Shown piece by piece: positions 9,442-37,955 of a stretch of DNA of 64,000 nt. The DNA lies in assembly GCA_002712285.1 (NCBI GenBank), contig PATC01000023.1, forward strand, positions 809 through 64,808. Reading direction: 5' to 3'. The translations under genes and the position numbers were made by a program. The notes below the pieces were generated by a model that had not been told where the DNA came from, searched no databases, and was given only the letters and a program-made list of their open reading frames with translations. The number at the start of each line of letters is the position of its first letter. Positions within the stretch are counted from its first letter, which is position 1. Source of the stretch: Methanobacteriota archaeon (GTDB lineage Archaea; Thermoplasmatota; Poseidoniia; Poseidoniales; Thalassarchaeaceae).

Positions 9442-11190
9442 ATGGAGGAGCACATGGATCCCAAGGAACTGCGTATCCAGCAAGCTATCTCTGCTTGGCG
9501 TCGTCCTGTCGATGGAATCGGTTTGATTACTACGCTGGCATTAGTGGCCCTAGGTGCGTATATCGCCTTCCCTGCACTATCTGGAGATTCTTTGTCCAAT
9601 GGCTTTGTGCCACTTTTTGCCCTTCTCGGATGCTCACTACTGGTTGCAGATCTCGTAGATTTTGGACCTAACCAAAGAACTCGAATCGGGACTCTGAGTG
9701 GGATGGTTAGCCCTGTTCTCGTGGTTGCTGGATTGTTTTATGCAACTGAGGCTGTTCTTCGAGAACACCAATTTGCTGGTATAGGGTGGATGTTTTCAGG
9801 AGTTATCTTGATGGCTACAAACACGATTATCTTCGGACAAGAAGAACGTAGTGAAGTTATTCAATATCGAGCAATGATAAGGCTACTCGGACTCACTATC
9901 GCGGCAGCATGGTGTATCGCAGAGATCTCAGAGGATCTGGTCGTGATGTACCTGGTCGCTCTTTTACTCGCTGGCATCGTATTCGGTTTCGATCTTCGAC
10001 TAGGTAAAGATGACCGAATACAAAGACGCATTTTCAGAGAGCGATATGAAACTCTGGAACTTCAGCTTCTCGAAGTACGCGCATCTGGCATAGTCATAGA
10101 TCAAGCCATATCTCTTCTATCTAAAGCAAATGAAGTTGGTTGGACAGATTATGACGAAGGAATGCATCTTCTTCGACAAGCAGAAGATGATCTTGAACGC
10201 ATTTTGAGCTTCTCTGAAGATATTACCGTCATTGAAGAAGACGCGGCATCGTTCGTCGAAGAAGCAACAAAAATTGCACCTCTCGCTGAACGTCCCTTCA
10301 AGGCACTAGAACAGGGGCGGAGAGAAGTCGAGCTAGGAAGTTTACGTGAAGGTGAGATGTTGTATCGACGTGCAAAAGCAAGAGCGCAGGATATTATCGC
10401 AAACTGGGCTGAGGCAGAATCAGCGGTCAATGAAGCAAAGAAAGTCATGGAAGGTTTGACTGGAAATGACTTAGACCGGATGAAAGTGCTACTAAAGGCA
10501 GCACAAGATGCAATGGATGCTGAAGAACCTGGAGATGCAATCACCATTGCATCAGCAATTCCTGCGCATGTAAACAATCTAGGCGAAGCCATGGAAGCAG
10601 CCTCTGAGGCTGTCAAAGATGCAAAGGACCTGATTGCACGAACAGATGGTCTTGACACTACACTCTGGAATGAAATGCTTGAACGGGCTGAAAAAGCACT
10701 TGGGGAGGGAGACGGATCTCTGGCTCGGGGTTTAGCAGATTCTATTCGAAGAGAGATTGAGGCTACAGAGGAAGCAAAAGCAAGTGTTCAACGGTCACTG
10801 AGACAACGAAAGACTCTACGTAAGCGATGGATAGGATGGTCTGATGAAAGTGAGTGGGAGAGTAAATTAGGACAAATCCTTGATGATACGAAGAAAGGAT
10901 CTTGGAGAACTGCATCTGAGATTATGAATGAATTAACGACGGAACTTGATGCACGGACCGCGGCTCTAGAAGATGCCACAGAACTACTTGAATTCCTACT
11001 CGATGAATGGAAGAATCTCAGAAACCAACTACAGAAGGTTGCAATTGGTCCCGATGATAATGAGCGATTGGAGTGTGAAGCAGCAGTCGCCAGTGCTAAA
11101 CAAGCCCACGAAGTTGCGGATGTCCCTAGATGTCTAGATGCTCTCGGAGATGCTGACGGGCGAATGGAAAAACTACGACGTCGAGTTTGA
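9442..11190 (+). CDS. membrane-anchored coiled-coil protein of unknown function
   Basis: Roughly 4-5 N-terminal TM helices (aa 25-190) then ~390 aa of highly charged, heptad-like Ala/Glu/Arg/Leu-rich sequence. Confidence 0.5.
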   Translation: MEEHMDPKELRIQQAISAWRRPVDGIGLITTLALVALGAYIAFPALSGDSLSNGFVPLFALLGCSLLVADLVDFGPNQRTRIGTLSGMVSPVLVVAGLFYATEAVLREHQFAGIGWMFSGVILMATNTIIFGQEERSEVIQYRAMIRLLGLTIAAAWCIAEISEDLVVMYLVALLLAGIVFGFDLRLGKDDRIQRRIFRERYETLELQLLEVRASGIVIDQAISLLSKANEVGWTDYDEGMHLLRQAEDDLERILSFSEDITVIEEDAASFVEEATKIAPLAERPFKALEQGRREVELGSLREGEMLYRRAKARAQDIIANWAEAESAVNEAKKVMEGLTGNDLDRMKVLLKAAQDAMDAEEPGDAITIASAIPAHVNNLGEAMEAASEAVKDAKDLIARTDGLDTTLWNEMLERAEKALGEGDGSLARGLADSIRREIEATEEAKASVQRSLRQRKTLRKRWIGWSDESEWESKLGQILDDTKKGSWRTASEIMNELTTELDARTAALEDATELLEFLLDEWKNLRNQLQKVAIGPDDNERLECEAAVASAKQAHEVADVPRCLDALGDADGRMEKLRRRV

Positions 11191-11970
11191 TTACATGTCG
11201 AAATCTACGACTACAGGTGCATGGTCTGAGACCTCAAGACCGCCTGCTCTCACGATACGTGCGTCCTTGAATAGCGTCTTTGCAGCATTGTTCCCCAATA
11301 TATAATCGATACGCCAACCCTTGTTATCCTCCCGTGCTCGCCCTCGATTTGACCACCAAGAATAGGGGCCTTGGACTGACCCCCAATGTTCGCGGCAAAG
11401 ATCGTGCCAACCACTTGCGAGAAGATGACTGAACCAAGCTCGCTCATGGGGAAGAAATCCTGATGACATCATGTTACCGCGAGCATTCCAGATGTCAATC
11501 TCCTCATGAGCGATATTCAAGTCACCTGCGACAATTACAGGGTTCTCACTTGCAAATTGAGGTTTCAACCATTCTGCCCAGTTCTCCATCCACCTCTCCT
11601 TGTACAATTGTCGGTCAATTTTCGATGAACCACTCGGAAGATATGTATTGATGCATCGGAAACTACCATGCTGTGTTACGAGAATTCTTCCCTCAAGATC
11701 CTCTGGGTCATCTCCTCGACCCATCCCAGTACTCACGGTTGTGAATTCTTCTCTGCCCCATGTTGCTACCCCGGAATATCCCTTCTTTTCAGCCGGATGC
11801 CATTCCACTTGCATGTCAGAAGGCGGAGACCAATCCTTAGGAAGCTGTTCAGGAAGAGCACGAACTTCCTGAAAAAGCCAGATATCGGCATCCAGTTCTT
11901 GAATGAAGAGGTCTAGACCTTTTCGGATTGCAGCACGGATCCCATTCAAATTCCACGATACGATGCGCAT
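11191..11970 (-). CDS. xth: exodeoxyribonuclease III / AP endonuclease
   Basis: MRIVSWNLNGIRA...FQEV and the C-terminal SDHAPV motif are typical of the ExoIII/EEP family. Confidence 0.85.
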   Translation of the reverse strand: MRIVSWNLNGIRAAIRKGLDLFIQELDADIWLFQEVRALPEQLPKDWSPPSDMQVEWHPAEKKGYSGVATWGREEFTTVSTGMGRGDDPEDLEGRILVTQHGSFRCINTYLPSGSSKIDRQLYKERWMENWAEWLKPQFASENPVIVAGDLNIAHEEIDIWNARGNMMSSGFLPHERAWFSHLLASGWHDLCREHWGSVQGPYSWWSNRGRAREDNKGWRIDYILGNNAAKTLFKDARIVRAGGLEVSDHAPVVVDFDM

Positions 11971-11976: not shown

Positions 11977-12990
11977 TCAAACCTCAAGATTAGTGGACCA
12001 AGTGCCAGAACGTGCTAGATGCGCCATTTCACATCTATGCGCGAATACCTTGTGTGCTACACTAACATCGTCTTGATTCTTAGCCCATGTCTTGAGTGTG
12101 GTAGCTTGGAGAGCACGCCCATAGGAATAAGACAGTTGGAAAGGATGAGGGCCCATGTTGTTCATCATGTTGAGATGTGCTGTTGCTTCAACCTCGGTTT
12201 GTCCACCTGAAAGAAAGACAATTCCCGGAATTTCATGGGGGACGTTTTCATGCAGTAAATCTACAGTCAAACGAGCACAAGTCTCAACATCGCTCCGCAC
12301 TGAATGACCCTTTCCGGGAAGTACCATGTTTGGCTTAAGCAAGGCGCCGGGCAGATGCACTCCTTGAACCTTGCATTCGTCCCATGTGGCGGACAAAACA
12401 TCAACGGTTACAGCGTAGCAGCGCGCAGCATCGTGGTCCCCCTCCATCAGGACCTCTGGCTCAATGATCGGAACTAAACCCTGCTCCTGACAAATTGCTG
12501 CATAACGTGCAAGGGCATGGGCATTCGTAGAAATACAGGACTTAGATGGCATCCCATCACTGATACGGAAGACTGCGCGCCACTTTGCGAAGCGAGCACC
12601 CATCTCAAAGTATTCTGCACAGCGCTCCCGGAGGCCATCCAGCCCCTCAGTTACGGTTTCACCTTCATGACCTGCGAGCGGCTTAGCACCAGTATCTACC
12701 TTGATTCCGGGCATTATGTTGAGAGCATGCAGATAGTCCGGAATAGAAGTGCCGTCCACCGCATTCTGCCGGATAGTCTCGTCATAGAGAATTACGCCAC
12801 TGATTGCCTGCGCAATCGTTGGCATCGCGAAGAGACTAGCACGGTACTGTCGTCGTGTTTCTGGTGTCGATTCTACTCCAACTGATTCAAGTCTTTTCGT
12901 CATGGTACCATTAGATTCGTCTGCTGCAAGGATGCCTCGTCCTGGTCCAACAAGGAAATTCGCTGTCGATTCAAGAAGCGCCGTGTCCAT
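11977..12990 (-). CDS. fba: fructose-bisphosphate aldolase, class I (eukaryotic type)
   Basis: GILAADESNGT, GIKVDTG and the Schiff-base Lys context GALLKPNMV are near-identical to animal/plant class I aldolases. The start is probably the internal Met (MDTALLEST); the ORF is open to 13029. Confidence 0.85.
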   Translation of the reverse strand: MDTALLESTANFLVGPGRGILAADESNGTMTKRLESVGVESTPETRRQYRASLFAMPTIAQAISGVILYDETIRQNAVDGTSIPDYLHALNIMPGIKVDTGAKPLAGHEGETVTEGLDGLRERCAEYFEMGARFAKWRAVFRISDGMPSKSCISTNAHALARYAAICQEQGLVPIIEPEVLMEGDHDAARCYAVTVDVLSATWDECKVQGVHLPGALLKPNMVLPGKGHSVRSDVETCARLTVDLLHENVPHEIPGIVFLSGGQTEVEATAHLNMMNNMGPHPFQLSYSYGRALQATTLKTWAKNQDDVSVAHKVFAHRCEMAHLARSGTWSTNLEV

Positions 12991-13038
12991 GACCCAAACT
13001 ATGCCCAGCAGTCCTTGAAGAGTTCGCACGGATTATTC

Positions 13039-13992
13039 TCAACGAGTGTACTCACTGCTCACAAATCTACGAGTTCCCTGCAAGACATCGATAATCTCAC
13101 TATGAACCGCAGTACGATCAGGAAGGAACTCTACACCTGGAAGATAACCTGTACAGACACCGCTAGCAACGAAAATTGCATCATCCGACTTGCAAAGATC
13201 ATCCCGCTTCCAAATACGCTCGATATCATCATCAATCATACTCTCAGCACGTTCTCGATGACCATCATTCTTGAACACGAGTTGGCCTTCAAAGTGAGCA
13301 CCTAGGCCCCGTAAAGCCGTGGCGGTAATCACACCCTCTGGAGCTGCTCCAATACCAATCAGCATGTCAACCTCAGAATCAGGATTCGCTGCATCAAGAG
13401 CCGCAGATACATCCCCATCACCAATCAATCGAATCTTCACATCCAAATCTCGCAACTCTCGAATCAGTTCCTTGTGACGAGGACGTTCCATTACCACTGC
13501 TAAGATATCACGAGGGAGTTTATCCAACGCATGCGACGCAGCCTCAATGTTGTAAGCTACATCACCTTCAAGAGAAATCTCTCCCGCAAGTTCAGCAGGT
13601 CCTGCAAGCTTGTCCATGTAGCAGTCAGGAGCATGGAGGAGAGTACCGCGAGGAGCGGCAGCGAGAACGGCGATTGCATTGGGTGAGTCATTTGCACAAT
13701 GATTAGTACACTCAAGTGGATCGACCGCAATGTCGATGGTTAAGGCATCAGGGTCATTCTGTCGATTACCGAGGGGTTCGCCAATCCAGAGCATAGGTGC
13801 ATCATCGCGTTCACCCTCACCGATAGCAACACGTCCATCGAATGGAACACTATCAAACACAGCACGCATAGCTTCTACAGCAGCACCATCGGCCATCTTT
13901 CGCTCACCTCTACCACGCCAATCAGCAGCAGCGATTGCAGCAGCTTCAGTTGCTTTCAGGAAGGACTCAGCCAGATCGGCGGTGCGCTCCAT
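13039..13992 (-). CDS. glpX: fructose-1,6-bisphosphatase class II
   Basis: TEAAAIAAADWRGRGERKMADGAAVEAMR and VAIGEGERDDAPMLWIGE match GlpX signatures. The start is taken at MERTADL; the ORF extends to 14106. Confidence 0.8.
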   Translation of the reverse strand: MERTADLAESFLKATEAAAIAAADWRGRGERKMADGAAVEAMRAVFDSVPFDGRVAIGEGERDDAPMLWIGEPLGNRQNDPDALTIDIAVDPLECTNHCANDSPNAIAVLAAAPRGTLLHAPDCYMDKLAGPAELAGEISLEGDVAYNIEAASHALDKLPRDILAVVMERPRHKELIRELRDLDVKIRLIGDGDVSAALDAANPDSEVDMLIGIGAAPEGVITATALRGLGAHFEGQLVFKNDGHRERAESMIDDDIERIWKRDDLCKSDDAIFVASGVCTGYLPGVEFLPDRTAVHSEIIDVLQGTRRFVSSEYTR

Positions 13993-14017
13993 AGTGGCTC
14001 GTGGGTGGATTAGGTGT

Positions 14018-14476
14018 CTAAACCTCACCATCGGATTTCCGCTTCTCCAAAACTCGAATTCCATGAATTTGAGTAGATGGATACTGGCCATCTTCATCCT
14101 TCTCAAAGGATTTCACCATGTCAAGAGCACAGAGTAAGCCTGTAGCTACTGCACAAAGGGCCTCCATCTCGACACCAGTCTTCCAATGGGCAGATACACT
14201 AACCCGACAGATTAGATCCGATTCATCCCAATCCCACTCAACTCGACAACTCTCTAATGGGATGGGATGGCAATGGGGAATCATGCGTGGTGTCTCTTTT
14301 GCAGCTTGAATGGCAGCAATTGTACTGGCTTCAAATACATCGCCTTTCGACACTGACCCTTCCTGAATAGCTGTGATACTATTCAAACCAAGGCGGAGAC
14401 GACCTTCTGCCTGTGCATAGCGCTCAATGATGGGTTTGTGCCCTACTGGGACTATACCGTCGATGCCTTCATTCAT
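14018..14476 (-). CDS. moaC: cyclic pyranopterin monophosphate synthase accessory protein
   Basis: KGDVFEASTIAAIQAAKETPRMIPHCHPIPL matches the MoaC core. The start Met ATG overlaps the moaE stop (ATGA). Confidence 0.8.
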   Translation of the reverse strand: MNEGIDGIVPVGHKPIIERYAQAEGRLRLGLNSITAIQEGSVSKGDVFEASTIAAIQAAKETPRMIPHCHPIPLESCRVEWDWDESDLICRVSVSAHWKTGVEMEALCAVATGLLCALDMVKSFEKDEDGQYPSTQIHGIRVLEKRKSDGEV

Positions 14477-14898
14477 CCTAAGCCCTCTTTCCAGTGAGTC
14501 CCATCCTCGCGAATCTCCTTCTTCCATAATGGGGCCTGTTTCTTGAGGGAATCGATTAGCCATGAACAGGCCTCAAATGCCTCTTTACGATGGGCAGAAC
14601 CGACATGTATCGACACAATCGGTTCACCTGCCCCCACACGACCTACGCGGTGCGACATAGCTACTGCAAGCACACCGAAACGATCTATTGACTCAAGAAC
14701 AAGATTATTCAAAACCTCAGGAAGACGCTCTTCCCACGCGTCAAATTCGAGAGCGTGAACCTTAACTCCATGTTCTACACCTCGTGTGATTCCAAGAAAA
14801 GATACAATGCCACCACAACCGGATAAATCGAGTTTGGAAAGGAGAACTTCTGAATCAAGGAATTCGGACTCAACATGGATTACCACACGCTCGGCCAT
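14473..14898 (-). CDS. moaE: molybdopterin synthase catalytic subunit
   Basis: GGIVSFLGITR, SHRVGRVGAGEPIVSIHVGSAHRKEAFEACSWLIDSLKKQAPLWKKE match MoaE. Confidence 0.75.
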   Translation of the reverse strand: MAERVVIHVESEFLDSEVLLSKLDLSGCGGIVSFLGITRGVEHGVKVHALEFDAWEERLPEVLNNLVLESIDRFGVLAVAMSHRVGRVGAGEPIVSIHVGSAHRKEAFEACSWLIDSLKKQAPLWKKEIREDGTHWKEGLG

Positions 14899-14979: not shown

Positions 14980-16218
14980 ATGTCGGATGAGGTTATCCAT
15001 ATCCTCGGTGCAGGACTGTCTGGCCTTGCGGCGGCGACAATTCTTGCTAAAGCGGGCAGAAATGTCGTTGTTCACGAGATCCGCAAAGATTCTGGAGCTC
15101 GTTTCGATGGTGATTTCCAAGGTCTTGAAAATTGGACGCAAAGCCGTGACTTCTTTGATGAGATGAAAGAATGGGGATTAGATCCCAGTACTTTCCGTTC
15201 AACAGACTTCAAACAAATGGACCTCGCGCATCCAGATGACACAATTACTGTCCCTAGCAGTCCAAGATTAGCATTCAGGATTGTCGAACGAGGTACTGAC
15301 GAACATTGCATCGATCAAGGATTCAAACGCATGGCAATCCAGGCAGGAGCCGAAATTAGATATGGTTCAAAGGTTAATCCATCGACTTGTACCATCATTG
15401 CTGCAGGGCCGAAGAAGACTAGTGCAGTCGCATTTGGAGAAGTATTCCGAACTTCACATCCAGATCATGTGACCTTTCAACTCAATGATAAGTTGGCCCC
15501 GGGCGCTTATTCGTATCTTATTGTCATCCAAGGCGTAGGCCTCATTTGCACCTGCTTGTGGCGTAAGCAGAAGCAAACAAAACGATATCTCAATGAAACC
15601 ATTGCTTGGTACGAACGGATGTATCCAGAGTTAGATCGTGAGCCAATCAAACGCGTCGGAGGAAAAGGTGATTTCTCCATTCCCGCATCTTACTTTAATG
15701 ATGGAAAATATTACGTCGGTGAAGCCGGCGGACTTCAAGACTTCATGTGGGGTTTTGGAATGCGATATGCTATCACAAGTGGTGTTTACGCAGCGCAAAC
15801 TATCCTCAATGAAGGAGGGCACGGATACGATGCGCGTATCCGTTCTACGTTACTCCCATCGATACGTATCAGTGCAACTAATCGTATGCTTATGGATCGA
15901 ATTGGTGACCGAGGATTCAAACGAATTGCCACTTATTGGATGAAAAATCAAGAAAAAACTGGAGACGGATTGTTGTTCATGGAACGTCTATACAAACCAG
16001 GATTTTTTCGCCGAATGCTTTGGCCAATAACAAAACGATTGTTACTAAGAAAAATTCGATTGGCAGATGGGCGAACCGCTAGAAGGATGCCCTTTCGAAA
16101 GGCCTTGAAGCGCGACCAATGGGAGATGGGGGCAAGAGCACACGAAATTGCAGAGGAGTGGAAAGGTATTCGATCAGCAGGTGGACGGGTGTCCTTTGAC
16201 GAGAATGACACAGTCTAA
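14980..16218 (+). CDS. FAD-dependent oxidoreductase (geranylgeranyl-reductase-family fold)
   Basis: A Rossmann GxGxxG (ILGAGLSGLAAAT) sits at the chosen Met, MSDEVIH. Upstream in-frame sequence overlaps moaE, so the later start is preferred. Confidence 0.6.
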   Translation: MSDEVIHILGAGLSGLAAATILAKAGRNVVVHEIRKDSGARFDGDFQGLENWTQSRDFFDEMKEWGLDPSTFRSTDFKQMDLAHPDDTITVPSSPRLAFRIVERGTDEHCIDQGFKRMAIQAGAEIRYGSKVNPSTCTIIAAGPKKTSAVAFGEVFRTSHPDHVTFQLNDKLAPGAYSYLIVIQGVGLICTCLWRKQKQTKRYLNETIAWYERMYPELDREPIKRVGGKGDFSIPASYFNDGKYYVGEAGGLQDFMWGFGMRYAITSGVYAAQTILNEGGHGYDARIRSTLLPSIRISATNRMLMDRIGDRGFKRIATYWMKNQEKTGDGLLFMERLYKPGFFRRMLWPITKRLLLRKIRLADGRTARRMPFRKALKRDQWEMGARAHEIAEEWKGIRSAGGRVSFDENDTV

Positions 16219-16261
16219 TACTCGACCTCAACTTCTTATGCCCGGTTCCATTGGGCGATGT

Positions 16262-17122
16262 ATGTCCGAGTGGCCCGAACTGAAGCCAATGAAGAACCGA
16301 CTTGTGAACTACGGTGTGAGCGACAATGGGGTCGCTATCATCGAACTAATCTCTGATTCCGATGGCGAACCACTTGAAGGCGATAAGACATCGGTTAACA
16401 CCTACACTCGCGAAATGTGGCACGATATCGATGATGCGATCCTCGCAGCACGCTTCGACGATAATGTCTCCGTAATCCTCGTTACAGGACATGGTGAAAA
16501 GTTCTTTTCCGCCGGAGCGAGCATCAAGTATCTCAACAAACTCAGTCCACGCTACAAGTATTTCTTCTGCCTGCATGCAAATGAGACTCTCTCACGTCTC
16601 GAACAGACGCCAAAACTCGTCATTGCTGCTCTGAACGGCCATACTGTCGGTGGTGGACTTGAAATTGCCATGGCTGCCGATATTCGAATTGGGCGCAAGG
16701 GTAACTTCCAGGTTGGCCTCCCCGAGGTCTCGCTCGGCGTCCTCGCAGGCACAGGTGGAACTGCTCGGCTTTCTCGTCTAGTCGGTAAGGCAAAAGCCAT
16801 GGAGATTATGGTCACTGGCCGAAAATTCTCCTTTGAAGAATCAAAAGAAATGGATTTAGTTCACGATATATACGACAGTCTGTCACTTGATGAATACCGT
16901 CAGGATGTCTTAGATTACGCTAGTCGATTCACTCTCCCCTTCGCTGCAGCAAAGGCAATTGGAAACATCAAGCGCAGCGTACAGAGTGGATTGGAAATTC
17001 CACTCGAGTACCATCTTGCACTTGAGCGTGAACTACAATCCGATCTCTTCCAATCCGATGATGCAAAAGCCGGAATCAAAGCTTATGTCGAAAAGCAAAC
17101 TCCGCGCTTCACCGGAAATTGA
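16262..17122 (+). CDS. enoyl-CoA hydratase/isomerase (crotonase fold)
   Basis: FFSAGASIKYL and LNGHTVGGGLEIAMAADIRIG oxyanion-hole motifs. The start is set after the upstream gene ends (MSEWPELKPM). Confidence 0.75.
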   Translation: MSEWPELKPMKNRLVNYGVSDNGVAIIELISDSDGEPLEGDKTSVNTYTREMWHDIDDAILAARFDDNVSVILVTGHGEKFFSAGASIKYLNKLSPRYKYFFCLHANETLSRLEQTPKLVIAALNGHTVGGGLEIAMAADIRIGRKGNFQVGLPEVSLGVLAGTGGTARLSRLVGKAKAMEIMVTGRKFSFEESKEMDLVHDIYDSLSLDEYRQDVLDYASRFTLPFAAAKAIGNIKRSVQSGLEIPLEYHLALERELQSDLFQSDDAKAGIKAYVEKQTPRFTGN

Positions 17123-17203
17123 GATTCAAGACACCTGCTTGCACGATAGCCTTCCACGGGCTTTGGCTGATGTTGAAATACCACCATCTACCCCCCCCTA
17201 AAC

Positions 17204-18349
17204 ATGAGCACCACAGAGATTGTAGAGAAATACCATCCCAACTTTGAGGGATGGGTGCAGGAATTCCAAGACTGGCAGACTCGTATCGGCTTTGATCCTG
17301 CTTGGCTAGGCGACTATCGCTTCGAAATTCGATTTGACTGGGACTCCGCTGGAGATACGATTGAATTTGGTGATTTTGAGGGTATGCCCAAGTGGAAACG
17401 CAGGATGCAAATCCCTCAGCAGAATATTATCGATGCCATTCTAACGATGGTTAGCGTCCAAGGGGATACAGAATTCGCCTCAGTTGAACAGCAAAATCAT
17501 CTGCTCGCAACAGCTCCGACAGAGTATGATCGAAAGTCTGCACTTCGAATCATGTGCGAAGAGCAGCGACATGGATGGCAGATGGCTTACCTACTCTGTA
17601 CCTACTTCGGCGAACAAGGTGTCCGAGAAGCCGCAAAACTCCTCGAAAGGAACGCCCAGGATGGGACTCGTCTACTGGGTTCATTCAATGCTCCAATTGA
17701 CCACTGGCTCGACTTCTTCTGCTTCACTCAGTTCATCGATAGAGATGGCAAGTATCAACTGAAAATGCTCTCAACCAGTTCATTCCAGCCCCTAGCTGCT
17801 TCTATGGGTCCTATGCTGAAAGAGGAATCCTTTCACTTGGGGACAGGCGCTAATGGTATTCGAAGAATCGTCAAAGCAGGCGTTATTCCCATTGCGTTCC
17901 TTCAAAAATACATCAATAAATGGGTCAGCACCGGTCTAGACTTGTTTGGAACAGATGAATCGACCTCTGCAGAATGGGCTTACGTCTATGGAGTTAAGGG
18001 CCGATATGACGAACGAGAATCAGCGGAAAAGGCAGATCGGGAACACTTGAACGAAGCCAGCCGTATGCTCTACTTCGATGAAATTCGAGCAGATATGAAA
18101 CGAACTAGTAAGGCTAGAAAAGAAGGTGAACCAGAGTTGTTCTGCCCTTCAGACAAGTTCAATCGAGGTATTGGGAATTATGCTGACAAGCGTTTTACTA
18201 TTACCGGTGAGCCATTCGAAGGAAGCGATTCAGAATGGGAAAAATACCTCGAGGATAACCTCCCTACAGAGGCTGACGAAAAGAAACTCATGGAAGAATA
18301 CATGGCACCAGGTGTTGAATGGATTCAATACCGTGAATGGAAGCAGTAA
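17204..18349 (+). CDS. BoxB-like diiron oxygenase (benzoyl-CoA 2,3-epoxidase subunit B family)
   Basis: HPNFEGWVQEF, VQGDTEFASVEQQNHL, EEQRHGWQMAYLL, WLDFFCFTQFIDRDGKYQL and PMLKEESFHLGTG parallel the BoxB motifs as I recall them, including the EExxH diiron ligands. This is called from memory without a search. Confidence 0.5.
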   Translation: MSTTEIVEKYHPNFEGWVQEFQDWQTRIGFDPAWLGDYRFEIRFDWDSAGDTIEFGDFEGMPKWKRRMQIPQQNIIDAILTMVSVQGDTEFASVEQQNHLLATAPTEYDRKSALRIMCEEQRHGWQMAYLLCTYFGEQGVREAAKLLERNAQDGTRLLGSFNAPIDHWLDFFCFTQFIDRDGKYQLKMLSTSSFQPLAASMGPMLKEESFHLGTGANGIRRIVKAGVIPIAFLQKYINKWVSTGLDLFGTDESTSAEWAYVYGVKGRYDERESAEKADREHLNEASRMLYFDEIRADMKRTSKARKEGEPELFCPSDKFNRGIGNYADKRFTITGEPFEGSDSEWEKYLEDNLPTEADEKKLMEEYMAPGVEWIQYREWKQ

Positions 18350-18375
18350 TTCTAGTCCTTCGGAGCGTGTAATAA

Positions 18376-18936
18376 ATGCAAACCCTGTCATTACTTGCTG
18401 TTAACCGTGAACGACTACGTCCTTTCTTTGAAAGAGTCCCTGAACTCTTTGAAATGCATCATCACCAAATCGATGAAGACCCCGAAGGATACGAAGAATT
18501 ACTCTACAAGGTGTATCGTCCATATCCTACTCACATGTTCGGTCTTATCGACGAATGGCTGGGAATGGAACAGCTAAGAATATCCAGTGAACAAGAGACA
18601 ATGCTACGTCTATTCCTCCTTGCGATTCGCTACCCAGATACTCTACTATTCGAAAGCCTAGACGAGGTACTAACCGCAGATTTACGCAGAATGTCTGCTT
18701 ACCTACACTTCACTAGCCATACCTATGCAATTTGGGATGATGACACCCGTAAAGGACTGGGGAAACTAGGATTTGAGATTCCTGCAACTAACAATGCAGA
18801 CCCGTTCATCTATGGTGCCTATGTAGGTACGATCGAGTTGCTAAAGGACCTCGCTCCCTTCACGTGTTTCTTGGAACATGACGTACCTAGGCAACGCCTT
18901 TTCCAAGCAGCTCTAGCTGCATATGGACGCGAATAA
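18376..18936 (+). CDS. hypothetical protein
   Basis: 186-aa ORF immediately downstream of the BoxB-like gene. No recognisable motif. Confidence 0.4.
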   Translation: MQTLSLLAVNRERLRPFFERVPELFEMHHHQIDEDPEGYEELLYKVYRPYPTHMFGLIDEWLGMEQLRISSEQETMLRLFLLAIRYPDTLLFESLDEVLTADLRRMSAYLHFTSHTYAIWDDDTRKGLGKLGFEIPATNNADPFIYGAYVGTIELLKDLAPFTCFLEHDVPRQRLFQAALAAYGRE

Positions 18937-18967
18937 TTGATTCAACGCGGGCAAGTGCTCGAAATTA

Positions 18968-19894
18968 GTGCAACATCTCACCGTCCATCTTAGGCTGGCC
19001 ACCGTCGCTGTAATATGGGGCGTTGGTTGGGTGGCAGGACGTGTTCTTGCTCAAGAGATTCCAACTTTCACTGCGGCTTGGCTCAGATATCTTACTGCAG
19101 TCCTTGCTTTCGTTGCTTGGCTGGCATGGACTGGTCGTTTTACATTACCAAATAGGAGAGAATGGAGAATAGTATCCTTTGTCGGCTTCTTCTCAACCTT
19201 CCTCTACCAAGTATTCTTCATGCTTGGTATGGAACGAACTGCAGCTGGTGATGCATCCTTGATGATCACTTTCAATCCACTATTCACTGCAATACTCGCC
19301 ATATTCTTCCTTAACGAAAAAATGACCAGTCGACTTGGAGCAGGAAGCATTCTTGCAATTGCTGGTGTTGCTATTCTATTCCTACGATCACCGAATATCG
19401 ATATCCCGGCAGGTACTAGAATGTTAGGTGATTTTTTCATAATGTTATCAGCACTCTCATGGTCGGCATCGGCCATTGCAATGAAGCGAGGGATGACCGC
19501 TGCACCAGAAGGTGAAACCCCAATGTCACCCCTACGTATCACCGTTTGGTCATCAATAACTGGTCTTGCTTTTCTGACACCTGGATTCATCTGGGAAGTT
19601 GCATCTAGCCAATGGGTTACACCCTCTACAGAAGCAATATCAGCAATTCTTTTCTTGGCCATTCTATCTACAGTTGTGTCTTATGTCTGGTACGCTGAAG
19701 GTATCCGAACAATCGGAGCTGGACCTGCCGCTCTCTATGTCTATCTAGTTCCTTTATTTGGAATTCTGAGTGGTTGGATTCTCTTGGATGAGAAGTTAGG
19801 ATGGAGCCTTCTACTCGCCTTTGTTCTAATTGTAGGTGGTATTGCCTTCGCTCAGAGCGCGAAGGGTGATGAACGGGCAAGTGCAGTCGAATGA
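18968..19894 (+). CDS. DMT-superfamily (EamA-like) transporter
   Basis: Ten predicted TM helices in a two-repeat EamA-like arrangement. GTG start. Confidence 0.7.
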   Translation: MQHLTVHLRLATVAVIWGVGWVAGRVLAQEIPTFTAAWLRYLTAVLAFVAWLAWTGRFTLPNRREWRIVSFVGFFSTFLYQVFFMLGMERTAAGDASLMITFNPLFTAILAIFFLNEKMTSRLGAGSILAIAGVAILFLRSPNIDIPAGTRMLGDFFIMLSALSWSASAIAMKRGMTAAPEGETPMSPLRITVWSSITGLAFLTPGFIWEVASSQWVTPSTEAISAILFLAILSTVVSYVWYAEGIRTIGAGPAALYVYLVPLFGILSGWILLDEKLGWSLLLAFVLIVGGIAFAQSAKGDERASAVE

Positions 19895-19895
19895 C

Positions 19896-20783
19896 ATGGA
19901 CATACGAACCGTCGCCGTGATTGGAGCCGGTACAATGGGAGCTGGTATAGCCCAAATCTGTGCACAAGTCGGATGGAAAACACTCCTCTATGATGCGTTT
20001 CCTGAAGGACTTGAACGAGGGATGGAACAAATAAATTCGTTTTGGGACAAAGGTATTGCTAGAGGGAAAACCACAGAGGAACAGAAGTCTGAGTGGGGTA
20101 CAAACCTACATCCCACAGATTCTCTCAATGAAGCAGTATCAGAAGCAGATCTCGTGATTGAAGCAGTCCCGGAGATTATGAAGTTGAAACAAGATATCTT
20201 TCAACAAATTGATTCAACGGCACCTGCACATGCAATCCTTGGTAGCAACACTTCTGGGCTCCCAATTGGTGAAATTGCTCAGGTAACCTCAAGACCGCAA
20301 AATGTCATTGGTATGCATTTCTTCAATCCAGTTCCATTGATGGCACTCTTGGAACTTATTCGTCATGATGGCACAAGCGAGGAAACTATCGAAGCCGCAC
20401 AAAACATCGCTGAACATCTAGGTAAGACTTCCATCCTAGTCCGAGATGTACCTGGATTCGCCACTAGTCGACTTGGTGTAGTTCTTGGAAACGAGGCAAT
20501 TCGTATGCTAGCTGATGGCGTAGCTTCAGCCAGCGATATTGATACCGCGATGAGATTAGGATACCGACATCCAATGGGTCCATTGGAACTTACCGATCTT
20601 GTAGGTCTTGATGTTCGAAGAGATATCCTAAACAACCTCGCGAAAGCCTTCGATGATTCTCGATACCTCCCACACCCATTACTCAACAAACTGGTCGAAG
20701 ATGGTGAACTAGGAAAAAAGACTGGACGAGGTATCTATGATTGGTCCAATGGTGAGAAAAATAATCGTGATCACAACATCTGA
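19896..20783 (+). CDS. 3-hydroxyacyl-CoA / 3-hydroxybutyryl-CoA dehydrogenase
   Basis: VAVIGAGTMGAGIAQ Rossmann motif plus NTSGLPI, MHFFNPVPLM and the C-terminal GKKTGRGIYDW. The start MDIRT lies right after the upstream stop. Confidence 0.85.
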   Translation: MDIRTVAVIGAGTMGAGIAQICAQVGWKTLLYDAFPEGLERGMEQINSFWDKGIARGKTTEEQKSEWGTNLHPTDSLNEAVSEADLVIEAVPEIMKLKQDIFQQIDSTAPAHAILGSNTSGLPIGEIAQVTSRPQNVIGMHFFNPVPLMALLELIRHDGTSEETIEAAQNIAEHLGKTSILVRDVPGFATSRLGVVLGNEAIRMLADGVASASDIDTAMRLGYRHPMGPLELTDLVGLDVRRDILNNLAKAFDDSRYLPHPLLNKLVEDGELGKKTGRGIYDWSNGEKNNRDHNI

Positions 20784-20792
20784 GGTGACATT

Positions 20793-21077
20793 TTGCTCTC
20801 AGATGTCATAATCGAAGTAATCGGTGCTATGGCTGGCTTGCTTGGCGTAATCGCTTGGCTTCCACAACTCCACCGTGTAATGATTCAACGACTCCACCAA
20901 GGGATCTCGATGCCAACATTATTGACAATATGTCTCGCCTTAGTCTTATGGATAATCTACGGGTTCCTAATCGATTCCATGGCTATTATTGGGTCGAATA
21001 TTGCTGCTGGTACATGTGTATCTCTGGTTGCAGCACGAGTCACACAGCTTAGACGTCTTGAGCATAAATCAAAGTAA
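20793..21077 (+). CDS. SemiSWEET / PQ-loop family small sugar transporter
   Basis: ~94 aa with 3 TMs and a WLPQL motif at the end of TM1. TTG start. Confidence 0.6.
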   Translation: MLSDVIIEVIGAMAGLLGVIAWLPQLHRVMIQRLHQGISMPTLLTICLALVLWIIYGFLIDSMAIIGSNIAAGTCVSLVAARVTQLRRLEHKSK

Positions 21078-21542
21078 ATTACTAGGCAGAATCAATTCAA
21101 CTAGAGACCAAGTGCCTTTCTCGTGCCATAATGTTTCATCTACTGTTCGTTCAAGTAGCGCTACCGACCCAGATGGTAAAGAAATTGAGGAACCTGAGAG
21201 CCAATCAACCATCATCTCCCATCCAGGATTATGACCTAGAAGCATAGGGCATTCCCCCTCCAGTGAATCACCCAAAGCAGAGACAACATCCATCAAATTG
21301 GCATGATACAACTCTGAGAGAATGTATTCCTTCGCATCATCTAGATGAATTCGCATCCTCTGCATAGTTTCACGCGTTCTCTCTGAATCGGAGAGATAGA
21401 CTACATCGGGTATCCAGTTACGGGTTTCGAGAGTTTTCGCAATCAAAAGCGCATCTCTTCGGCCTTTTTCATTGAGTGTGCGCGCATGATCAGATCGCAC
21501 GGGATTCGCCCAACTACTCTTGGCATGCCGCATCACGATCAT
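21069..21542 (-). CDS. histidine phosphatase (SixA / phosphoglycerate-mutase superfamily)
   Basis: MIVMRHAKS...RTLNEKGRRDA contains the RHG catalytic motif and GHNP follows later. The start is taken at the internal Met. Confidence 0.6.
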   Translation of the reverse strand: MIVMRHAKSSWANPVRSDHARTLNEKGRRDALLIAKTLETRNWIPDVVYLSDSERTRETMQRMRIHLDDAKEYILSELYHANLMDVVSALGDSLEGECPMLLGHNPGWEMMVDWLSGSSISLPSGSVALLERTVDETLWHEKGTWSLVELILPSNLL

Positions 21543-21602
21543 TCGGCGATGTGAGGCCATAATGCAATATGAGAAGATGGTCGGCTTGAATTCTATGCTG
21601 AA

Positions 21603-22400
21603 TTATTCTGATTCATCTAAAGTGTGGAATATTGGATCTCGCTTCTCAAGGAAAGACGCGACACCTTCAGCAAAGTCAGGTAAACGGCTTGATTCTGTAA
21701 TTAGCATGCGTTCAAATTCTAATTGAGTCTCAAAAAATGTCGACGATTGAGAATCTAACAATTGCTTCGTAGATCGCTTAGACTGGTCCGACCAACGTCC
21801 CCATTCCATCGCAATCCGAATCGCACGAGGGACGAGTTCTTCAGGCTCCACCACCTCATCGACTGCACCCAAATCCATTGCTTCCTGCGCACTCCATGTT
21901 TGATCCTCAAAGAGAAAACGACGCGCATTTTGGAGACCTACGAGACGTGGAAGTAGCCACGTGGTTCCACCATCCGGTGAAAGGCCAAGACGGAAGAATG
22001 CAGATGCCAAACGAGCCTTCGTAGAAGCAATCCGAACATCACAAGCAAGCGCAAGGCCAAGGCCGCCTCCAGCAGCCGCTCCATTCATTGCAGCCACAAT
22101 GACAGTAGGATCGGCACGCATACGAACGAGAAGCGGATGGAGGATACCGGTTAGGGTAGCAACTAAATCAGCAGCAGTACCATCTTCGATTGCAGACTTA
22201 AATGACTGAATGTCAGCACCAGCACAAAACACACGGCCAGACCCTGTAATCACGATTGAACGGATCTCTGAATCATCCATCAAACGGGTAAGTTCAGCCG
22301 ATATAGCAGCCATAGAAACCGCATCGAATGCATTACTAGATGCCTCTTCTGATAAAGTCACAACTGCAGTTTGACCTTGTGTCACCACGCCGACAGTCAT
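21603..22400 (-). CDS. enoyl-CoA hydratase/isomerase (crotonase fold)
   Basis: FCAGADI...NGAAAGGGLGLALACDVRIAS crotonase motifs. Confidence 0.8.
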   Translation of the reverse strand: MTVGVVTQGQTAVVTLSEEASSNAFDAVSMAAISAELTRLMDDSEIRSIVITGSGRVFCAGADIQSFKSAIEDGTAADLVATLTGILHPLLVRMRADPTVIVAAMNGAAAGGGLGLALACDVRIASTKARLASAFFRLGLSPDGGTTWLLPRLVGLQNARRFLFEDQTWSAQEAMDLGAVDEVVEPEELVPRAIRIAMEWGRWSDQSKRSTKQLLDSQSSTFFETQLEFERMLITESSRLPDFAEGVASFLEKRDPIFHTLDESE

Positions 22401-22470
22401 ACTTCGCGGTAGAGGTCTACGTTATTGAAGTCCATGAAGGTCATAAGATGTGTATCCCTCAGGAAGACCG

Positions 22471-23895
22471 ATGCAACGCAAAGAACTGTACATCGATGGA
22501 GCATGGATTGCCCCTCAGGGCGATGGAACGATTGAGGTAGTCAACCCTACGACTGAGCAGGTCATCGGTTCCGTACCCGCGGGGTCTTCTGATGATGTGA
22601 ATCTCGCTGTTGCTGCAGCGAAACGCGCCTTTCCGGAGTGGGCTAACAGTAGTATCGAAACTCGCATGGCGGCTCTCAACGATCTCTCATTAGCTCTCAA
22701 GGAACTCACTGAAGAGTTGGCACAAACAATCACAGCAGAAGTAGGTACGCCGATTGGTTACAGCCGTATGGCAATGGTTGGAACCCCTCGTGTTGTTGCA
22801 AGATCTTATGCGAAAATGCTCGAGTCTTACGAATGGGAGCACGAAATTAGAAATTCAGTTATCGTGAAGGAACCCGTGGGAGTATGTGCCTTCATCACAC
22901 CGTGGAATTTCCCTCTGCACCAGATTGTGGGCAAGGTTGCTCCAGCACTTGCTGCTGGCTGCACCATGGTTCTCAAACCATCGAAGGAAGCTCCTCTAAA
23001 CGCATTTTTACTCGCTGATATTCTTCATGATATTGGCCTCCCACCTGGAGTTTTCAATCTCGTTAGCGGACACGGTAGCGAAGTGGGAGAGTTCCTCTCA
23101 GGTCACCCAGATGTCGACATGGTTTCATTCACCGGATCCACAGGAGCGGGAATCCGCGTATCTCAAGCAGCCGCACCAACTGTAAAGCGAGTAACCCTTG
23201 AACTAGGAGGCAAATCTGCGAACGTGATTCTCGATGATGCGGATATAATTCGAGCTGCAAAATCATCGATTGGCGCCTGCTATCAAAACTCAGGTCAGAC
23301 CTGTTCCGCACTAACACGACTCATTATCCCAGTAGCGCACAAAGAAGAGATTCTAGAGTTGGTCAAACAACGCGTAGATGGCTATACACCTGGAAATCCA
23401 CTAGACGAAAATACCCGCTGCGGGCCAATGGTTTCATCTAAACAACAGGCTAGTGTCCATAATTACATACAATCAGCAATCGATGAAGGTGCAACGCTCA
23501 TTGCCGGAGGTACCGAGATGCCAGATGGTATCGAAACCGGTTTCTTCGTTCGACCTACTGCCTTCGCCGATGTTACACCTGATATGACAATCTGGAAAGA
23601 GGAAGTATTCGGCCCTGTATTGACAATCACTACATACCAATCTGAGGAAGAGGCACTCTCTCTAGCAAACGATTCAATCTACGGACTTTCTGGCGGTGTC
23701 TGGTCTGGAGATACTGAACGTGCGATGGAATTCGCAAAGGGCATGCGCACCGGTCAAGTAAGCATAAACGGTGGACCATTCAATGTCAGTGCACCATTTG
23801 GTGGCTACAAGCAATCGGGGAATGGACGGGAACTTGGTGTGGAAGGACTAGATGAATTCCTTGAAATAAAGGCAATACAGCGCCCCATTGAATGA
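22471..23895 (+). CDS. NAD(P)-dependent aldehyde dehydrogenase
   Basis: FTGSTGAG, the catalytic Cys context GQTCSA, ELGGKSA and EEVFGPV. Confidence 0.85.
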   Translation: MQRKELYIDGAWIAPQGDGTIEVVNPTTEQVIGSVPAGSSDDVNLAVAAAKRAFPEWANSSIETRMAALNDLSLALKELTEELAQTITAEVGTPIGYSRMAMVGTPRVVARSYAKMLESYEWEHEIRNSVIVKEPVGVCAFITPWNFPLHQIVGKVAPALAAGCTMVLKPSKEAPLNAFLLADILHDIGLPPGVFNLVSGHGSEVGEFLSGHPDVDMVSFTGSTGAGIRVSQAAAPTVKRVTLELGGKSANVILDDADIIRAAKSSIGACYQNSGQTCSALTRLIIPVAHKEEILELVKQRVDGYTPGNPLDENTRCGPMVSSKQQASVHNYIQSAIDEGATLIAGGTEMPDGIETGFFVRPTAFADVTPDMTIWKEEVFGPVLTITTYQSEEEALSLANDSIYGLSGGVWSGDTERAMEFAKGMRTGQVSINGGPFNVSAPFGGYKQSGNGRELGVEGLDEFLEIKAIQRPIE

Positions 23896-25789: not shown

Positions 25790-28700
25790 ATGTTTGACCT
25801 ACCCCATGGAGACCCTATCGACAGCCTGTTCGACGGTAGTGCGTTGAATGAAGTAGTTGAGTTTGAATGCGGGATAATCTCGAGTTACAAACCAAAGTCA
25901 CGAAGTCCTTGTGCACATCGAATTGTAGCAGGCGGACACATAGTTGGTTGGCTGGCCGATGCTGAAGAGAACAAACACTACGTTGGAGGTCATGCGGCAA
26001 AGGCACGGCTAGTGGAGTTAGAAGATGCCCATGAATTAAGACACAAGGCATATGCTCTGCTGTTAGAAGAAGTCCGAAGTCTGATTGATGGTGTTCCCGA
26101 ATGCCTTGCCGACCCTGCATTGATGGGCACATTAGGCCTTGCTGGACGTCGTCTTCCTGCGGCTACACATGATTGGCCTCTCGTTGTCGATGTGCTTGAA
26201 TCAGAAACTGGAGTTATTGCTGCTCTAGCATTTGAGGATGGAGTCCTCATACATTCTTCAGGGGAAACACCAGCAGACCCAGATGCACTTTCTGCTGACC
26301 TTGATGCGCAATTGAGAGGTATGGATGCCTTAACTCAACTCATGGGCGCATCACCTGCACCTTGGTATCGACAGGCTTTCGACGAGCACGAGATGACTGT
26401 CGCAAGAGATGGTTCTGCTGGATTAGCACTTTGGACGACCGGTGGGGCTGATCCAATGACACTCTTGATGAATGCTGCAGGCATGATTGAACCATCCGAG
26501 AACGAGGCAGATTCAGAGGTTGTAGCACCAGCAAACGGGTTCATTGTTCGGGAAGGAAAGGGCGGTGTTGATTCATTAATCTCAATGCTTTCTACTGCAA
26601 AGACTGAGGAAATTACAGGACATCTGAGATCTGAAGGAAAAGGTGAATCAGTATCTATTCTCCTAATTGATGGGCTCCCTTCGGGAATCTATTCTACAGC
26701 TGATGGGTTAGAAACTTCAATTCGTGATATTTCCTCACCAAGTGCCGACCTCCAACTTCATCGCTTGGAACGGGCTGCAAGACTAACGCTTGGCCGTGGA
26801 AATATCGATGGATTTACCCTTGAATCAATGTGTCATTCAATAGCCACAGTTCGTACACGTTCAGAGAGTAGACGTGACCTACTAATCGACCGACTAGACA
26901 GATTATATCGATTTGAGATGGGGATGGACATGGTTGATTCAGCAAAGGGCCAATGGAGATTATTGGATACAGGGGGACGTGCTACAGCGAAGATATTGCC
27001 ATCTTCTGCAGCAGGTAAGGTGCTACAGCCCGAAGAACGACAGATTCTCGATCGAATACGTCGCCTAGAGGAAGATAAAATTGGATTGGAACGAGATCGT
27101 GGCCGTTTGGAACGGATGCTCGAAGAAGAGCAAACTCAACGTACCCAATCTGATGAGACTCTTGCTCAAAAGGCAGCGCTTCTTGAAGAGTCCACTAACA
27201 AGGTCAGAAGTCTGAATGAAGAATTAGATCAAGCACGGCTTATTGTTCAAAGCGCCGGCGAATCTAGTGAATCAGATAGGATAAGAGCGGATTCCCTTGC
27301 AAAGCGTGTAGCTGAACTAGAACATCTCGTAGAGCGTAAGGCTATTGAGATTGCATCAGCCATCGGCGAGAGCAAGAAGCGGGAAGAGTTGAGTGTTGAA
27401 CTTGAGGAGATTATGAAGAAAGAAGTAGAGACTCGTGCAACACTCAATGATGCTGAATCTCGACTTGACGAAGTTCGTACTGCACTCAATGAAGATGAAC
27501 GAGTTCAACGTGTACTCTCTGAACAGGTCTCTTCTCTGCGTGATCGACACCGTCTCGCTGATGCAGAAACAAAGGAAGCCGAAGTTCGAATGAGAAATCA
27601 CCGTGCTGAAGTCGCTGCCCTGGAAGGTGATCTCCATACTCTAAGAAGGCAAATCGATGAAGATCGAGGTCGGACTAATGACCTTGAACGTAGGCAGGCT
27701 CTTCTTCAAACAGAATTGAAAGAACTCATGGCTGAACGACGTACACTGATGAGAGAATTAGGCGACCTCGATGCTCGTAAGGCACAGGCAGAAGCGGAAC
27801 TCCGAGAGATGATCACAGATGCTGAAGAACTCACTGAGGCTCATGAGCAGGCTCTAGTTGACATTGCTGAAGCAGATCGAATTCGCTCCCGCCTACAAGA
27901 AGAACCTCTTGCCCGCGCTCTTCTTGATGACGACGGACTGCGGGCTCTCGAACCTGTGCTTGAACGTATGGAGAGTGCTCGTAACCGAGGTCTTTCTATG
28001 GTCCTCCTGGATCGCGCTGTCGAACGAGGGTTAGCGGTTATCCAACATACCGTTGATGAAGTTGCAGCAACACCACGACACCTACTATCGACTGAAGTCA
28101 TGGATCTGCTTGAACAACAGGCTCCAGAAACTGCTTCCGCAGTCCGTGGCCTAACACGTTGGTCAGTACAACAACGCCTACATCACATGCTTGGACAGAT
28201 TGTGAACGACGTAGTACTAGATCTGGAAGATATTCTACGTGGTTACGAGGAGGCTGCCACTACTATTGGCCAGATGAGTGATGTCCTGCGCAGCCTCAAT
28301 GATCTAGGGATGCCTGCGAGACAGATTGAAGCAATTGAGCGAATGCTCACACGACCTGAGACACTACCCCGGATTGCCGCTGAAACACAGGCACTCATCA
28401 ACTCAGCACTCGATGACATCTACATCGATGCAGATCAGAGGGATGCTGGTCAATCAGTTGATTTAGCTTCAACTATTGAAGCATTAGAACGAATGGCAAA
28501 ACGTCTTGAGGTATTATCAGGTGAAGAAGGTGGGTTCCAAGGATCTATTTGGCGCTTCCAAAGATCAGGTATGTTGCCTTTTGAAACCGGTCGACTAGTA
28601 GGAGTTCAACGCCCAGATATTGATAATCGAGCCCTCTTAGAAATGGACCCAGAAAGGACGGATAATTTCGACAATGAGGAAACAAATGGTGGCGAGGTTC

Positions 28701-37674: not shown

Positions 37675-37727
37675 ATGTAAAATGAGTTCAAGCAATACCT
37701 AAAGAAGGAGGTTATCAAACGGACATT

Positions 37728-37955
37728 ATGGCCAAATCTATTCTGGCCGCGATGGTTTTTGGAATCATGATTAGCAGCCTCAACAAGATACAAACCAGTG
37801 AGATGATTTTGAATTATATCAGCTCATTTCTTCTCGTAATTTCAACAGCGGCTTGGTCAATAATTTCAGTTGTTTTAGTTCTAGCAATTTACAGGATTAT
37901 TAAGCAAGATCGAAGAAGCGACGGGACGCATGCATCCACAAAATGTAATGCTTGA
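37728..37955 (+). CDS. small two-TM membrane protein
   Basis: 75 aa, two hydrophobic helices. Overlaps the next gene by ATGA. Confidence 0.3.
   Translation: MAKSILAAMVFGIMISSLNKIQTSEMILNYISSFLLVISTAAWSIISVVLVLAIYRIIKQDRRSDGTHASTKCNA

Follow-up and report, generated by a model that had tools for sequence, protein, structure and literature searches.

BoxB, the benzoyl-coenzyme A (CoA) 2,3-epoxidase of the canonical Box pathway in Azoarcus evansii (PDB 3PER and 3PM5), and PaaA, of the Paa system (phenylacetyl-CoA 1,2-epoxidase PaaABC(D)E), are both aryl-CoA epoxidases. The iron ligands of BoxB are Glu120, Glu150, His153, Asp211, Glu240, and His243, and the benzoyl group is oriented by Gln116, Thr119, Ser123, Phe193, Phe203/206, and Thr210 (PMC5489048). 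BoxB is reported to copurify with BoxC and to need BoxC against product inhibition (PMC4498308, which also provides the summary of the lower Box or Paa pathway used here for comparison). We analyzed a relative of these enzymes encoded by open reading frame (ORF) 17204-18349 of a 64-kb window, the whole stretch of DNA under study, from contig PATC01000023.1. The source of the window is a Marine Group IIb (MGIIb) archaeon of the Thalassarchaeaceae (Poseidoniales). Sequence comparisons place this protein as a BoxB-like diiron oxygenase, sister to BoxB, within a CoA-ester catabolic module that has no BoxA in the 64-kb window.

The locus shares features with both systems. Like BoxB, the archaeal protein is a single catalytic polypeptide, unlike the PaaABC-type complex, and as in BoxABCD, a crotonase-family partner and an aldehyde dehydrogenase (ALDH) lie beside the oxygenase. 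It has the Pfam family PaaA_PaaC in common with the Paa system, whose lower pathway (PaaG, PaaZ, PaaF, PaaH, and PaaJ) is mirrored by PaaG-type and hydratase-type crotonases, an ALDH, and a 3-hydroxyacyl-CoA dehydrogenase (HCDH), with a thiolase in bacteria. In contrast to BoxABCD, the crotonase partners have 260 to 290 amino acids (aa) rather than the ~555 of BoxC, and the ALDH does not look to be of the BoxD or PaaZ type. In contrast to the Paa system, there is no PaaZ-like MaoC-ALDH fusion, and no PaaB, PaaC, PaaD, or PaaE gene was found in the window.

The oxygenase and its relatives

BoxB was by far the top-scoring family for the archaeal protein. It matched TIGR03225, the NCBIfam equivalog model of BoxB, with 219.3 bits in three stretches (E = 8.7e−65), below the curated cutoff of 499.1, and passed the gathering threshold of Pfam PaaA_PaaC (PF05138; 41.8 bits, threshold of 28.5; E = 9.3e−11). 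The PaaA model TIGR02156 gave only 34.3 bits and its cutoff of 280 was not reached, so that the comparison of the BoxB and PaaA profiles, suggested in an initial annotation of this DNA, came out in favor of BoxB. The best solved structure was A. evansii BoxB (PDB 3PER, E = 3.2e−49). The second, PDB 4MUD ([quoted passage not shown]; E = 2.7e−20 over residues 60 to 222), has the four-helix diiron core in common with the archaeal protein, but is much shorter (235 aa), lacks the C-terminal domain, and gives no functional guidance.

The motifs EEQRHGWQM and KEESFHLGTG are present in the protein, and all six iron ligands of BoxB are kept (E90, E120, H123, D179, E208, and H211, with codons within nucleotides 17471 to 17836). 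The BoxB-like identity and the EExxH and EE..H ligands read from the sequence by the initial annotation are thus borne out; it had also envisaged best hits in another ferritin-like family with different metal ligands, and we found BoxB itself with identical ones. The product is predicted to be a catalytically intact diiron oxygenase. Six of the seven positions of the benzoyl pocket are also kept (Q116, T119, S123, F193, F203, and F206 in BoxB numbering), the seventh, T210, being changed to isoleucine. Elsewhere in the library of representatives, P0168 (367 aa) is BoxB-like with all six iron ligands replaced; by its sequence it is a degenerate PaaC-like paralogue.

Pairwise alignment with the canonical BoxB P0154 (908 bits on TIGR03225) was colinear over nearly the whole length, with 35% identity, consistent with the same fold. 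Compared with P0154, ~46 residues are missing from the N terminus of the archaeal protein and the last ~20 from its end, as well as one insert of 19 aa and another insert region of ~23 aa. The protein is ~90 aa shorter than BoxB. An exhaustive HMMER search against 1.84 billion cluster representatives retrieved only 859 relatives at E ≤ 1e−3. The near-full-length representatives split in two, canonical BoxB of ~465 to 475 aa versus several shorter lineages of ~350 to 395 aa. The former scored 672 to 909 bits on TIGR03225 (P0154, 908.5; P0148, 672.2), and the latter 51 to 234, with the short forms proper at 150 to 234. Neighbor-joining trees of these representatives, built on 216 to 228 columns, excluded the archaeal protein from the canonical BoxB side with 100% bootstrap and clustered it with short forms of Gemmatimonadota and with a bacterial group linked to NuoEF-like genes; the short-form clade itself received 64 to 67% bootstrap. 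On score and tree position, the protein is best placed as a paralogue of BoxB, belonging to a clade sister to it, and not as an orthologue; this was the alternative offered by the initial annotation and the one that fits best. Homologues of the oxygenase are named "benzoyl-CoA 2,3-dioxygenase component B" by JGI.

Gene neighborhood in MGIIb and bacteria

The cluster and the block next to it comprise the following genes. All those listed by the initial annotation are present at the coordinates it gave, and profile scores confirmed the families of the crotonases, HCDH, ALDH, and two transporters.

11977-14898, minus strand: block of class I fructose-bisphosphate aldolase (FBA), GlpX-type fructose-bisphosphatase, MoaC, and MoaE, directly upstream of the cluster
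14980-16218, plus strand: flavin adenine dinucleotide (FAD)-binding oxidoreductase (NAD_binding_8, 26 bits; geranylgeranyl-reductase [GGR] family, 35 bits versus a cutoff of 159)
16262-17122, plus strand: ECH1, crotonase of 286 aa (ECH_1, 150 bits)
17204-18349, plus strand: putative short-form BoxB-like diiron acyl/aryl-CoA oxygenase of 381 aa (TIGR03225, PaaA_PaaC)
18376-18936, plus strand: orphan all-alpha protein of 186 aa (no family match)
18968-19894, plus strand: EamA-family transporter (EamA, 158 bits)
19836-20783, plus strand: HCDH (3HCDH_N, 210 bits; 3HCDH, 109 bits)
20793-21077, plus strand: SemiSWEET-like small transporter (SemiSWEET_2, 49 bits, under the cutoff of 80)
21069-21560, minus strand: SixA-like histidine phosphatase (His_Phos_1, 32 bits; SixA, 49 bits, under cutoff)
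21603-22400, minus strand: ECH2, crotonase of 265 aa (ECH_1, 171 bits)
22450-23895, plus strand: NAD(P)-dependent ALDH (Aldedh, 532 bits)

From the FAD oxidoreductase to the SemiSWEET gene, all genes lie on the plus strand with intergenic gaps of 10 to 82 bp, except that the EamA and HCDH ORFs overlap; the true start of HCDH is probably near 19890. The phosphatase and ECH2 on the minus strand and the ALDH on the plus strand follow.

Scanning species-representative genomes with the product of ORF 17204-18349 identified 212 loci encoding a relative. The MGIIb counts given here refer to the best 80 of the 212, all from Poseidoniales/Thalassarchaeaceae or "Euryarchaeota" metagenome-assembled genomes (MAGs) and with 79 to 97% identity to the oxygenase. 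The closest matches were Euryarchaeota UBA40 and UBA251 (97% identity), in agreement with a marine archaeal host, as first supposed. The recurring order in MGIIb is FAD oxidoreductase, ECH1, BoxB-like oxygenase, orphan, HCDH, SemiSWEET, ECH2 (on the opposite strand), and ALDH. The most stable pairs join the oxygenase to the orphan (79/80), to HCDH (78/80), and to ECH1 (75/80). Median identity across MGIIb is 81% for the oxygenase and 87% for ECH1, compared with ~65% for flanking housekeeping genes. On a more divergent MGII-like contig of 370 kb (L091; oxygenase of 73% identity), the pair of FAD oxidoreductase and ECH1 is inverted and moved upstream, while the block of oxygenase, orphan, EamA, and HCDH is intact and immediately preceded by the gene of an HTH_10 regulator. 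In L091 (7362-9201), the oxygenase is split into ORFs of 306 and 102 aa, probably by a long-read frameshift.

When metagenomes were scanned with aligned short forms, 80 bacterial loci were retrieved, whose proteins belong to Gemmatimonadota or Gemmatimonadales wherever they are named. In a closed 3.86-Mb genome of a Gemmatimonadota-type group, genes with overlapping stops and starts form an operon in the order TetR, ECHa, ALDH, thiolase, ECHb, BoxB-like oxygenase, GDPD, HCDH, ECHc, and Amidohydro_2, with no acyl-CoA dehydrogenase. Genes of the window were the best matches of the operon members: ECH1 to ECHa (59% identity), the oxygenases to each other (52%), HCDH to HCDH (46%), ALDH to ALDH (39%, compared with 32% for the other ALDH of the window), and ECH2 to ECHb (34%). 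For the operon thiolase, the top-scoring models were those of the 3-oxoadipyl-CoA thiolases PcaF/PaaJ (541 and 535 bits; cutoffs of 605 and 597). More generally, short forms of Gemmatimonadota (e.g., P0447, locus L172) are 52 to 55% identical to the archaeal protein, have ~370 to 380 aa, and are flanked by the same ECH1-type and PaaG-type crotonases, ALDH, and HCDH. The bacterial operon adds TetR, the thiolase, GDPD, and the amidohydrolase, and the archaeal cluster adds the orphan, the FAD enzyme, and the transporters. In L172, the GDPD-family phosphodiesterase (11117-11788) and Amidohydro_2 (13403-14263) have no obvious Box- or Paa-type role.

We then considered the 25 bacterial loci with flanks of 4.8 kb or more on the upstream side and 3 kb or more on the downstream side. 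The initial annotation had left room for generic β-oxidation neighbors with no conserved linkage to the diiron gene in other genomes. Instead, 16 of the 25 carry the full set of ECH1, ALDH, thiolase, ECH2, BoxB-like oxygenase, and HCDH in one operon, and in 4 more only the ECH1-type crotonase is retained, sometimes together with ECH2 and TetR. An ECH1 orthologue (56 to 62% identity) is located at most 6 kb from the oxygenase in 20 of the 25. Since these families also accompany the oxygenase in another domain of life, and in an operon of overlapping genes, the neighborhood is not a random set of β-oxidation genes. The features of the short-form clade (~370 to 385 aa, intact ligands, and a linked ECH1-type crotonase with two catalytic glutamates) are all found in the archaeal oxygenase and its locus.

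The remaining five well-flanked loci encode a NuoE-like 2Fe-2S protein and a NuoF-like protein of the NADH/flavin mononucleotide/4Fe-4S type directly downstream of the oxygenase. Over all bacterial loci, this pair follows the oxygenase in 16 that differ from those with the operon, and also in L090 (9095-10817). The order in this context is radical-SAM, GAF/PEP-utilizing (PtsP-like), short BoxB-like, NuoE-like, and NuoF-like (L099, 4377-10736; also L093, L098, L101, and L103). It is possible that this pair is a dedicated reductase, as expected for an O2-activating enzyme. Other bacterial neighbor ORFs, including glutamine-amidotransferase-like, Mug-like, and M16 peptidase genes, had no consistent link to the oxygenase, and several "conserved" neighbor clusters were antisense ORF artifacts of high-GC DNA.

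ECH1 carries both catalytic glutamates (GGGLE and LPEV, corresponding to the GGGxE and PEV motifs), as do ECHa and ECHc. Its best PDB match was 2PPY (200 bits), and the 3-hydroxypropionyl-CoA dehydratase 5ZAI gave 145 bits. Among the partners of the oxygenase, ECH1 is the most constant. In ECH2 and ECHb, the first catalytic glutamate is missing and GLxPDxG is found (GLSPDGG in ECH2), which we take to be the pattern of PaaG and enoyl-CoA isomerases. Of the NCBIfam models, ECH2 scored highest, without reaching the cutoffs, with alternative-type oxepin-CoA hydrolase (186 bits) and PaaG (170 bits), and Escherichia coli PaaG (PDB 4FZW_C) was among its best PDB matches (132 bits). BoxC was absent from the best 25 NCBIfam families for either crotonase of the window, the matches being ordinary hydratases and PaaG-like proteins, in line with the early remark that the crotonase at 16262-17122 is far shorter than BoxC (286 versus ~555 aa). 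A third crotonase of hydratase type, 42% identical to ECHc, follows the ALDH directly in 32 of the 80 MGIIb loci (e.g., L173, 15222-16058, minus strand), including the most widespread MGIIb variant, P0052; it is absent at this position in the window.

The best models of the ALDH were BADH, Rv0768, and StyD-type, all below cutoff, and an ALDH lies within 10 kb of the oxygenase in 46 of the 80 MGIIb loci. It is a candidate semialdehyde dehydrogenase. The initial comparison with BoxD gained no support at the level of orthology, the enzyme scoring as a generic BADH/StyD-like ALDH, but it could still fill the functional role of BoxD. By analogy, HCDH would have a PaaH-like role.

The orphan directly downstream of the oxygenase was proposed at the outset for a conservation check, and it proved one of the most constant neighbors. 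It has 167 homologues, all without a Pfam match, and those that are named come from MAGs of Thalassarchaeaceae, Thermoplasmatota, or Euryarchaeota. The AF2 model is confident and all-alpha (pLDDT of 80, pTM of 0.76), Foldseek against PDB gave nothing better than E = 1.8, and no sequence relation to BoxB or to PDB sequences was found. The possibility that it is a split-off piece of BoxB supplying the missing segments was rejected (hhalign probability of 0.2). Its invariant residues are Y109, H111, H115, W120, D121, D123, E167, and H168, whose histidines and acidic residues hint at a metal site, so that the orphan may be a new metal-binding accessory protein.

The orphan, the FAD enzyme, and both transporters are confined to MGII. 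The FAD enzyme is present in 69 of the 80 MGIIb loci and stays beside ECH1 in L091. It has only weak PDB matches and no iron-sulfur motif, and no match was found upstream in L028 to L030 or in any bacterial locus. For these reasons, it has little to recommend it as the MGIIb electron donor; the initial suggestion that this GGR-like enzyme substitutes for BoxA gains no support, and its membership in the pathway is uncertain. The same applies to the transporters as pathway members: EamA occurs in only 3 of the 80 MGIIb loci, plus L091, and SemiSWEET in 61 of them and in none of the bacterial operons. The SixA-like gene (7/80), like EamA, is a lineage-specific insertion, and the phosphatase is probably unrelated to the pathway.

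The lack of an evident BoxA, noted from the start, extends to the 64-kb window, the MGIIb loci, and the Gemmatimonadota operon. In the window, ORFs of 100 aa or more yielded no BoxA-type ferredoxin/FNR protein, aryl-CoA ligase, or thiolase, the genome beyond it not being searched, and a motif scan revealed no AMP-binding signature either there or in the MGIIb loci and bacterial operons. Neither a BoxC-type protein of ~555 aa nor an evident BoxD-type ALDH is encoded here or in the bacterial operons.

Outside the cluster, the window contains very large ORFs at 42326-47470 (minus), 53354-58555 (plus), 6295-9402 (plus), 25790-28969 (plus), and 9442-11190 (plus). Among them, one of 1,714 aa with PA14 and Laminin_G_3 domains and one of 1,733 aa with CARDB are probably surface proteins, and those of 1,035, 1,059, and 582 aa have no Pfam match. 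At 36040-41422 (plus), the second ALDH (544 aa) lies upstream of genes for the flavoprotein and iron-sulfur subunits of succinate dehydrogenase/fumarate reductase, with an ORF of 285 aa without assignment in between. One tRNA is located at 48211-48282 (minus).

Possible function of the module

The most likely function of the oxygenase, to which we give about an even chance, is aryl-CoA epoxidation feeding a variant of the CoA-epoxide ring cleavage of the Box or Paa type. In the best reading of the gene content, the oxygenase, ECH1, ECH2, ALDH, and HCDH would form this variant pathway. The lower Box or Paa pathway would be served by two Glu/Glu crotonases and one of the PaaG type together with an ALDH, an HCDH, and a thiolase, acyl-CoA dehydrogenase being absent, and this inventory does not separate one pathway from the other. 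That the ring is epoxidized, that the substrate is aromatic (resembling benzoyl-CoA or phenylacetyl-CoA), and which crotonase serves which step are all inferred.

In the proposed route, a ligase encoded elsewhere would make the CoA thioester of an aromatic acid. The diiron center, reduced by a donor other than BoxA, would then activate O2 and epoxidize the ring, and a crotonase would open it hydrolytically to give a CoA-semialdehyde. ECH1 is the best candidate for this ring-opening hydrolase or hydratase, given the partnership of BoxB with BoxC and since ECH1 is invariably linked and highly conserved. The aldehyde would be oxidized by the ALDH, the 3,4 double bond moved to the 2,3 position by the PaaG-type ECH2 and hydrated by a Glu/Glu crotonase, and the product converted by HCDH to 3-oxoadipyl-CoA, from which a thiolase encoded elsewhere would release succinyl-CoA and acetyl-CoA. 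A phytanoyl-CoA-type α-oxidation, prompted by the GGR-like neighbor, was dropped, since there is no lyase and the bacterial operon points to 3-oxoadipyl-CoA.

Several observations weigh against aryl-CoA ring cleavage. In the MGIIb loci, the surrounding 10 kb contain no ligase, thiolase, or reductase. FBA, GlpX, MoaC, and MoaE are just as syntenic with the oxygenase across MGIIb, so that synteny within this group is by itself weak evidence of functional linkage. The correspondences of ALDH and ECH2 with the bacterial operon (34 to 39% identity) could reflect family-level similarity alone. Several bacterial relatives at 46 to 48% identity (L081 to L089) stand alone with no CoA genes nearby, and their gene context gave no pathway clue. 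The pocket residues do not establish benzoyl specificity, because the same second-shell residues are retained in very remote members of the family. Finally, no publication characterizing the short-form clade or the Gemmatimonadota operon was found in a literature search of incomplete coverage.

The main rival, although we consider it unlikely, is that the protein is a diiron enzyme that uses O2 to desaturate or hydroxylate a non-aromatic acyl-CoA, such as a dicarboxylyl-, branched, or alicyclic one, and that replaces acyl-CoA dehydrogenase in a specialized β-oxidation. Ferritin-like diiron enzymes include acyl desaturases, and MGII archaea are generally held to degrade fatty acids and protein. 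Such a role would suit operons with a hydratase, HCDH, and thiolase but without acyl-CoA dehydrogenase, as well as the resemblance of ECH1 to ordinary short-chain hydratases. However, it leaves the ALDH and the PaaG-type isomerase of the tight bacterial operon without a role, the nearest characterized relatives are BoxB and then PaaA, both aryl-CoA epoxidases, and the phenylalanines of the aromatic pocket are conserved.

That the protein is a true BoxB orthologue, acting as benzoyl-CoA 2,3-epoxidase in a canonical Box pathway as in A. evansii, seems improbable. The top-scoring family and solved structure, the identical ligands, the nearly complete benzoyl pocket, and the JGI name of the homologues would agree with it. 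Yet orthology conflicts with a score of 219 bits versus the cutoff of 499, where canonical representatives reach 672 to 909, with the loss of the N terminus, the two internal inserts, and the C-terminal tail, with a position outside the canonical clade, with the absence of BoxA, BoxC, a ligase, and a thiolase from the window and of BoxA and the 555-aa BoxC-type protein from the bacterial operons, and with the lack of an evident BoxD-type ALDH in either. A coincidental association of generic β-oxidation genes with an unrelated or noncatalytic PaaC-like ferritin-fold protein, to which the reach of MGIIb synteny, the stand-alone homologues, and ligand-less paralogues such as P0168 might point, is strongly disfavored by the linkage of the same families in overlapping genes of another domain, the six intact ligands, and the unusually strong constraint on the oxygenase and ECH1.

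Implications for MGII and the oxygenase family

In the literature searched, whose coverage is incomplete, the sole mention of an MGII boxB comes from a Red Sea metatranscriptome, where it is listed with the highly expressed genes of euryarchaeal (MG-II) contigs (PMC5069720). With aryl-CoA ring cleavage as the preferred function, a broader picture may be drawn, although tentatively and with less confidence than the function itself. MGIIb would highly express an O2-dependent CoA-epoxide pathway for an aromatic acid, with a trimmed single-subunit BoxB-like epoxidase, a small crotonase in place of BoxC, a non-BoxA electron donor, and a 186-aa accessory, effector, or electron-transfer protein, in a module shared with Gemmatimonadota by cross-domain gene transfer.

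The labels "BoxB" or "PaaI" given by annotation pipelines to the short forms overstate present knowledge. Because MGII archaea are uncultured, their substrates are inferred from genomes alone, and the Gemmatimonadota operon is a candidate system for testing the function. If the pathway is confirmed, the short forms would be an example of BoxB chemistry that works without BoxA or BoxC, and the predicted protein and lipid diet of MGII would be extended to aromatic acids, which might be benzoate-like or derived from phenylalanine. MGIIb is among the most abundant planktonic archaea, and the module would then represent both a new enzyme subfamily and a previously unrecognized archaeal sink for marine aromatic carbon.

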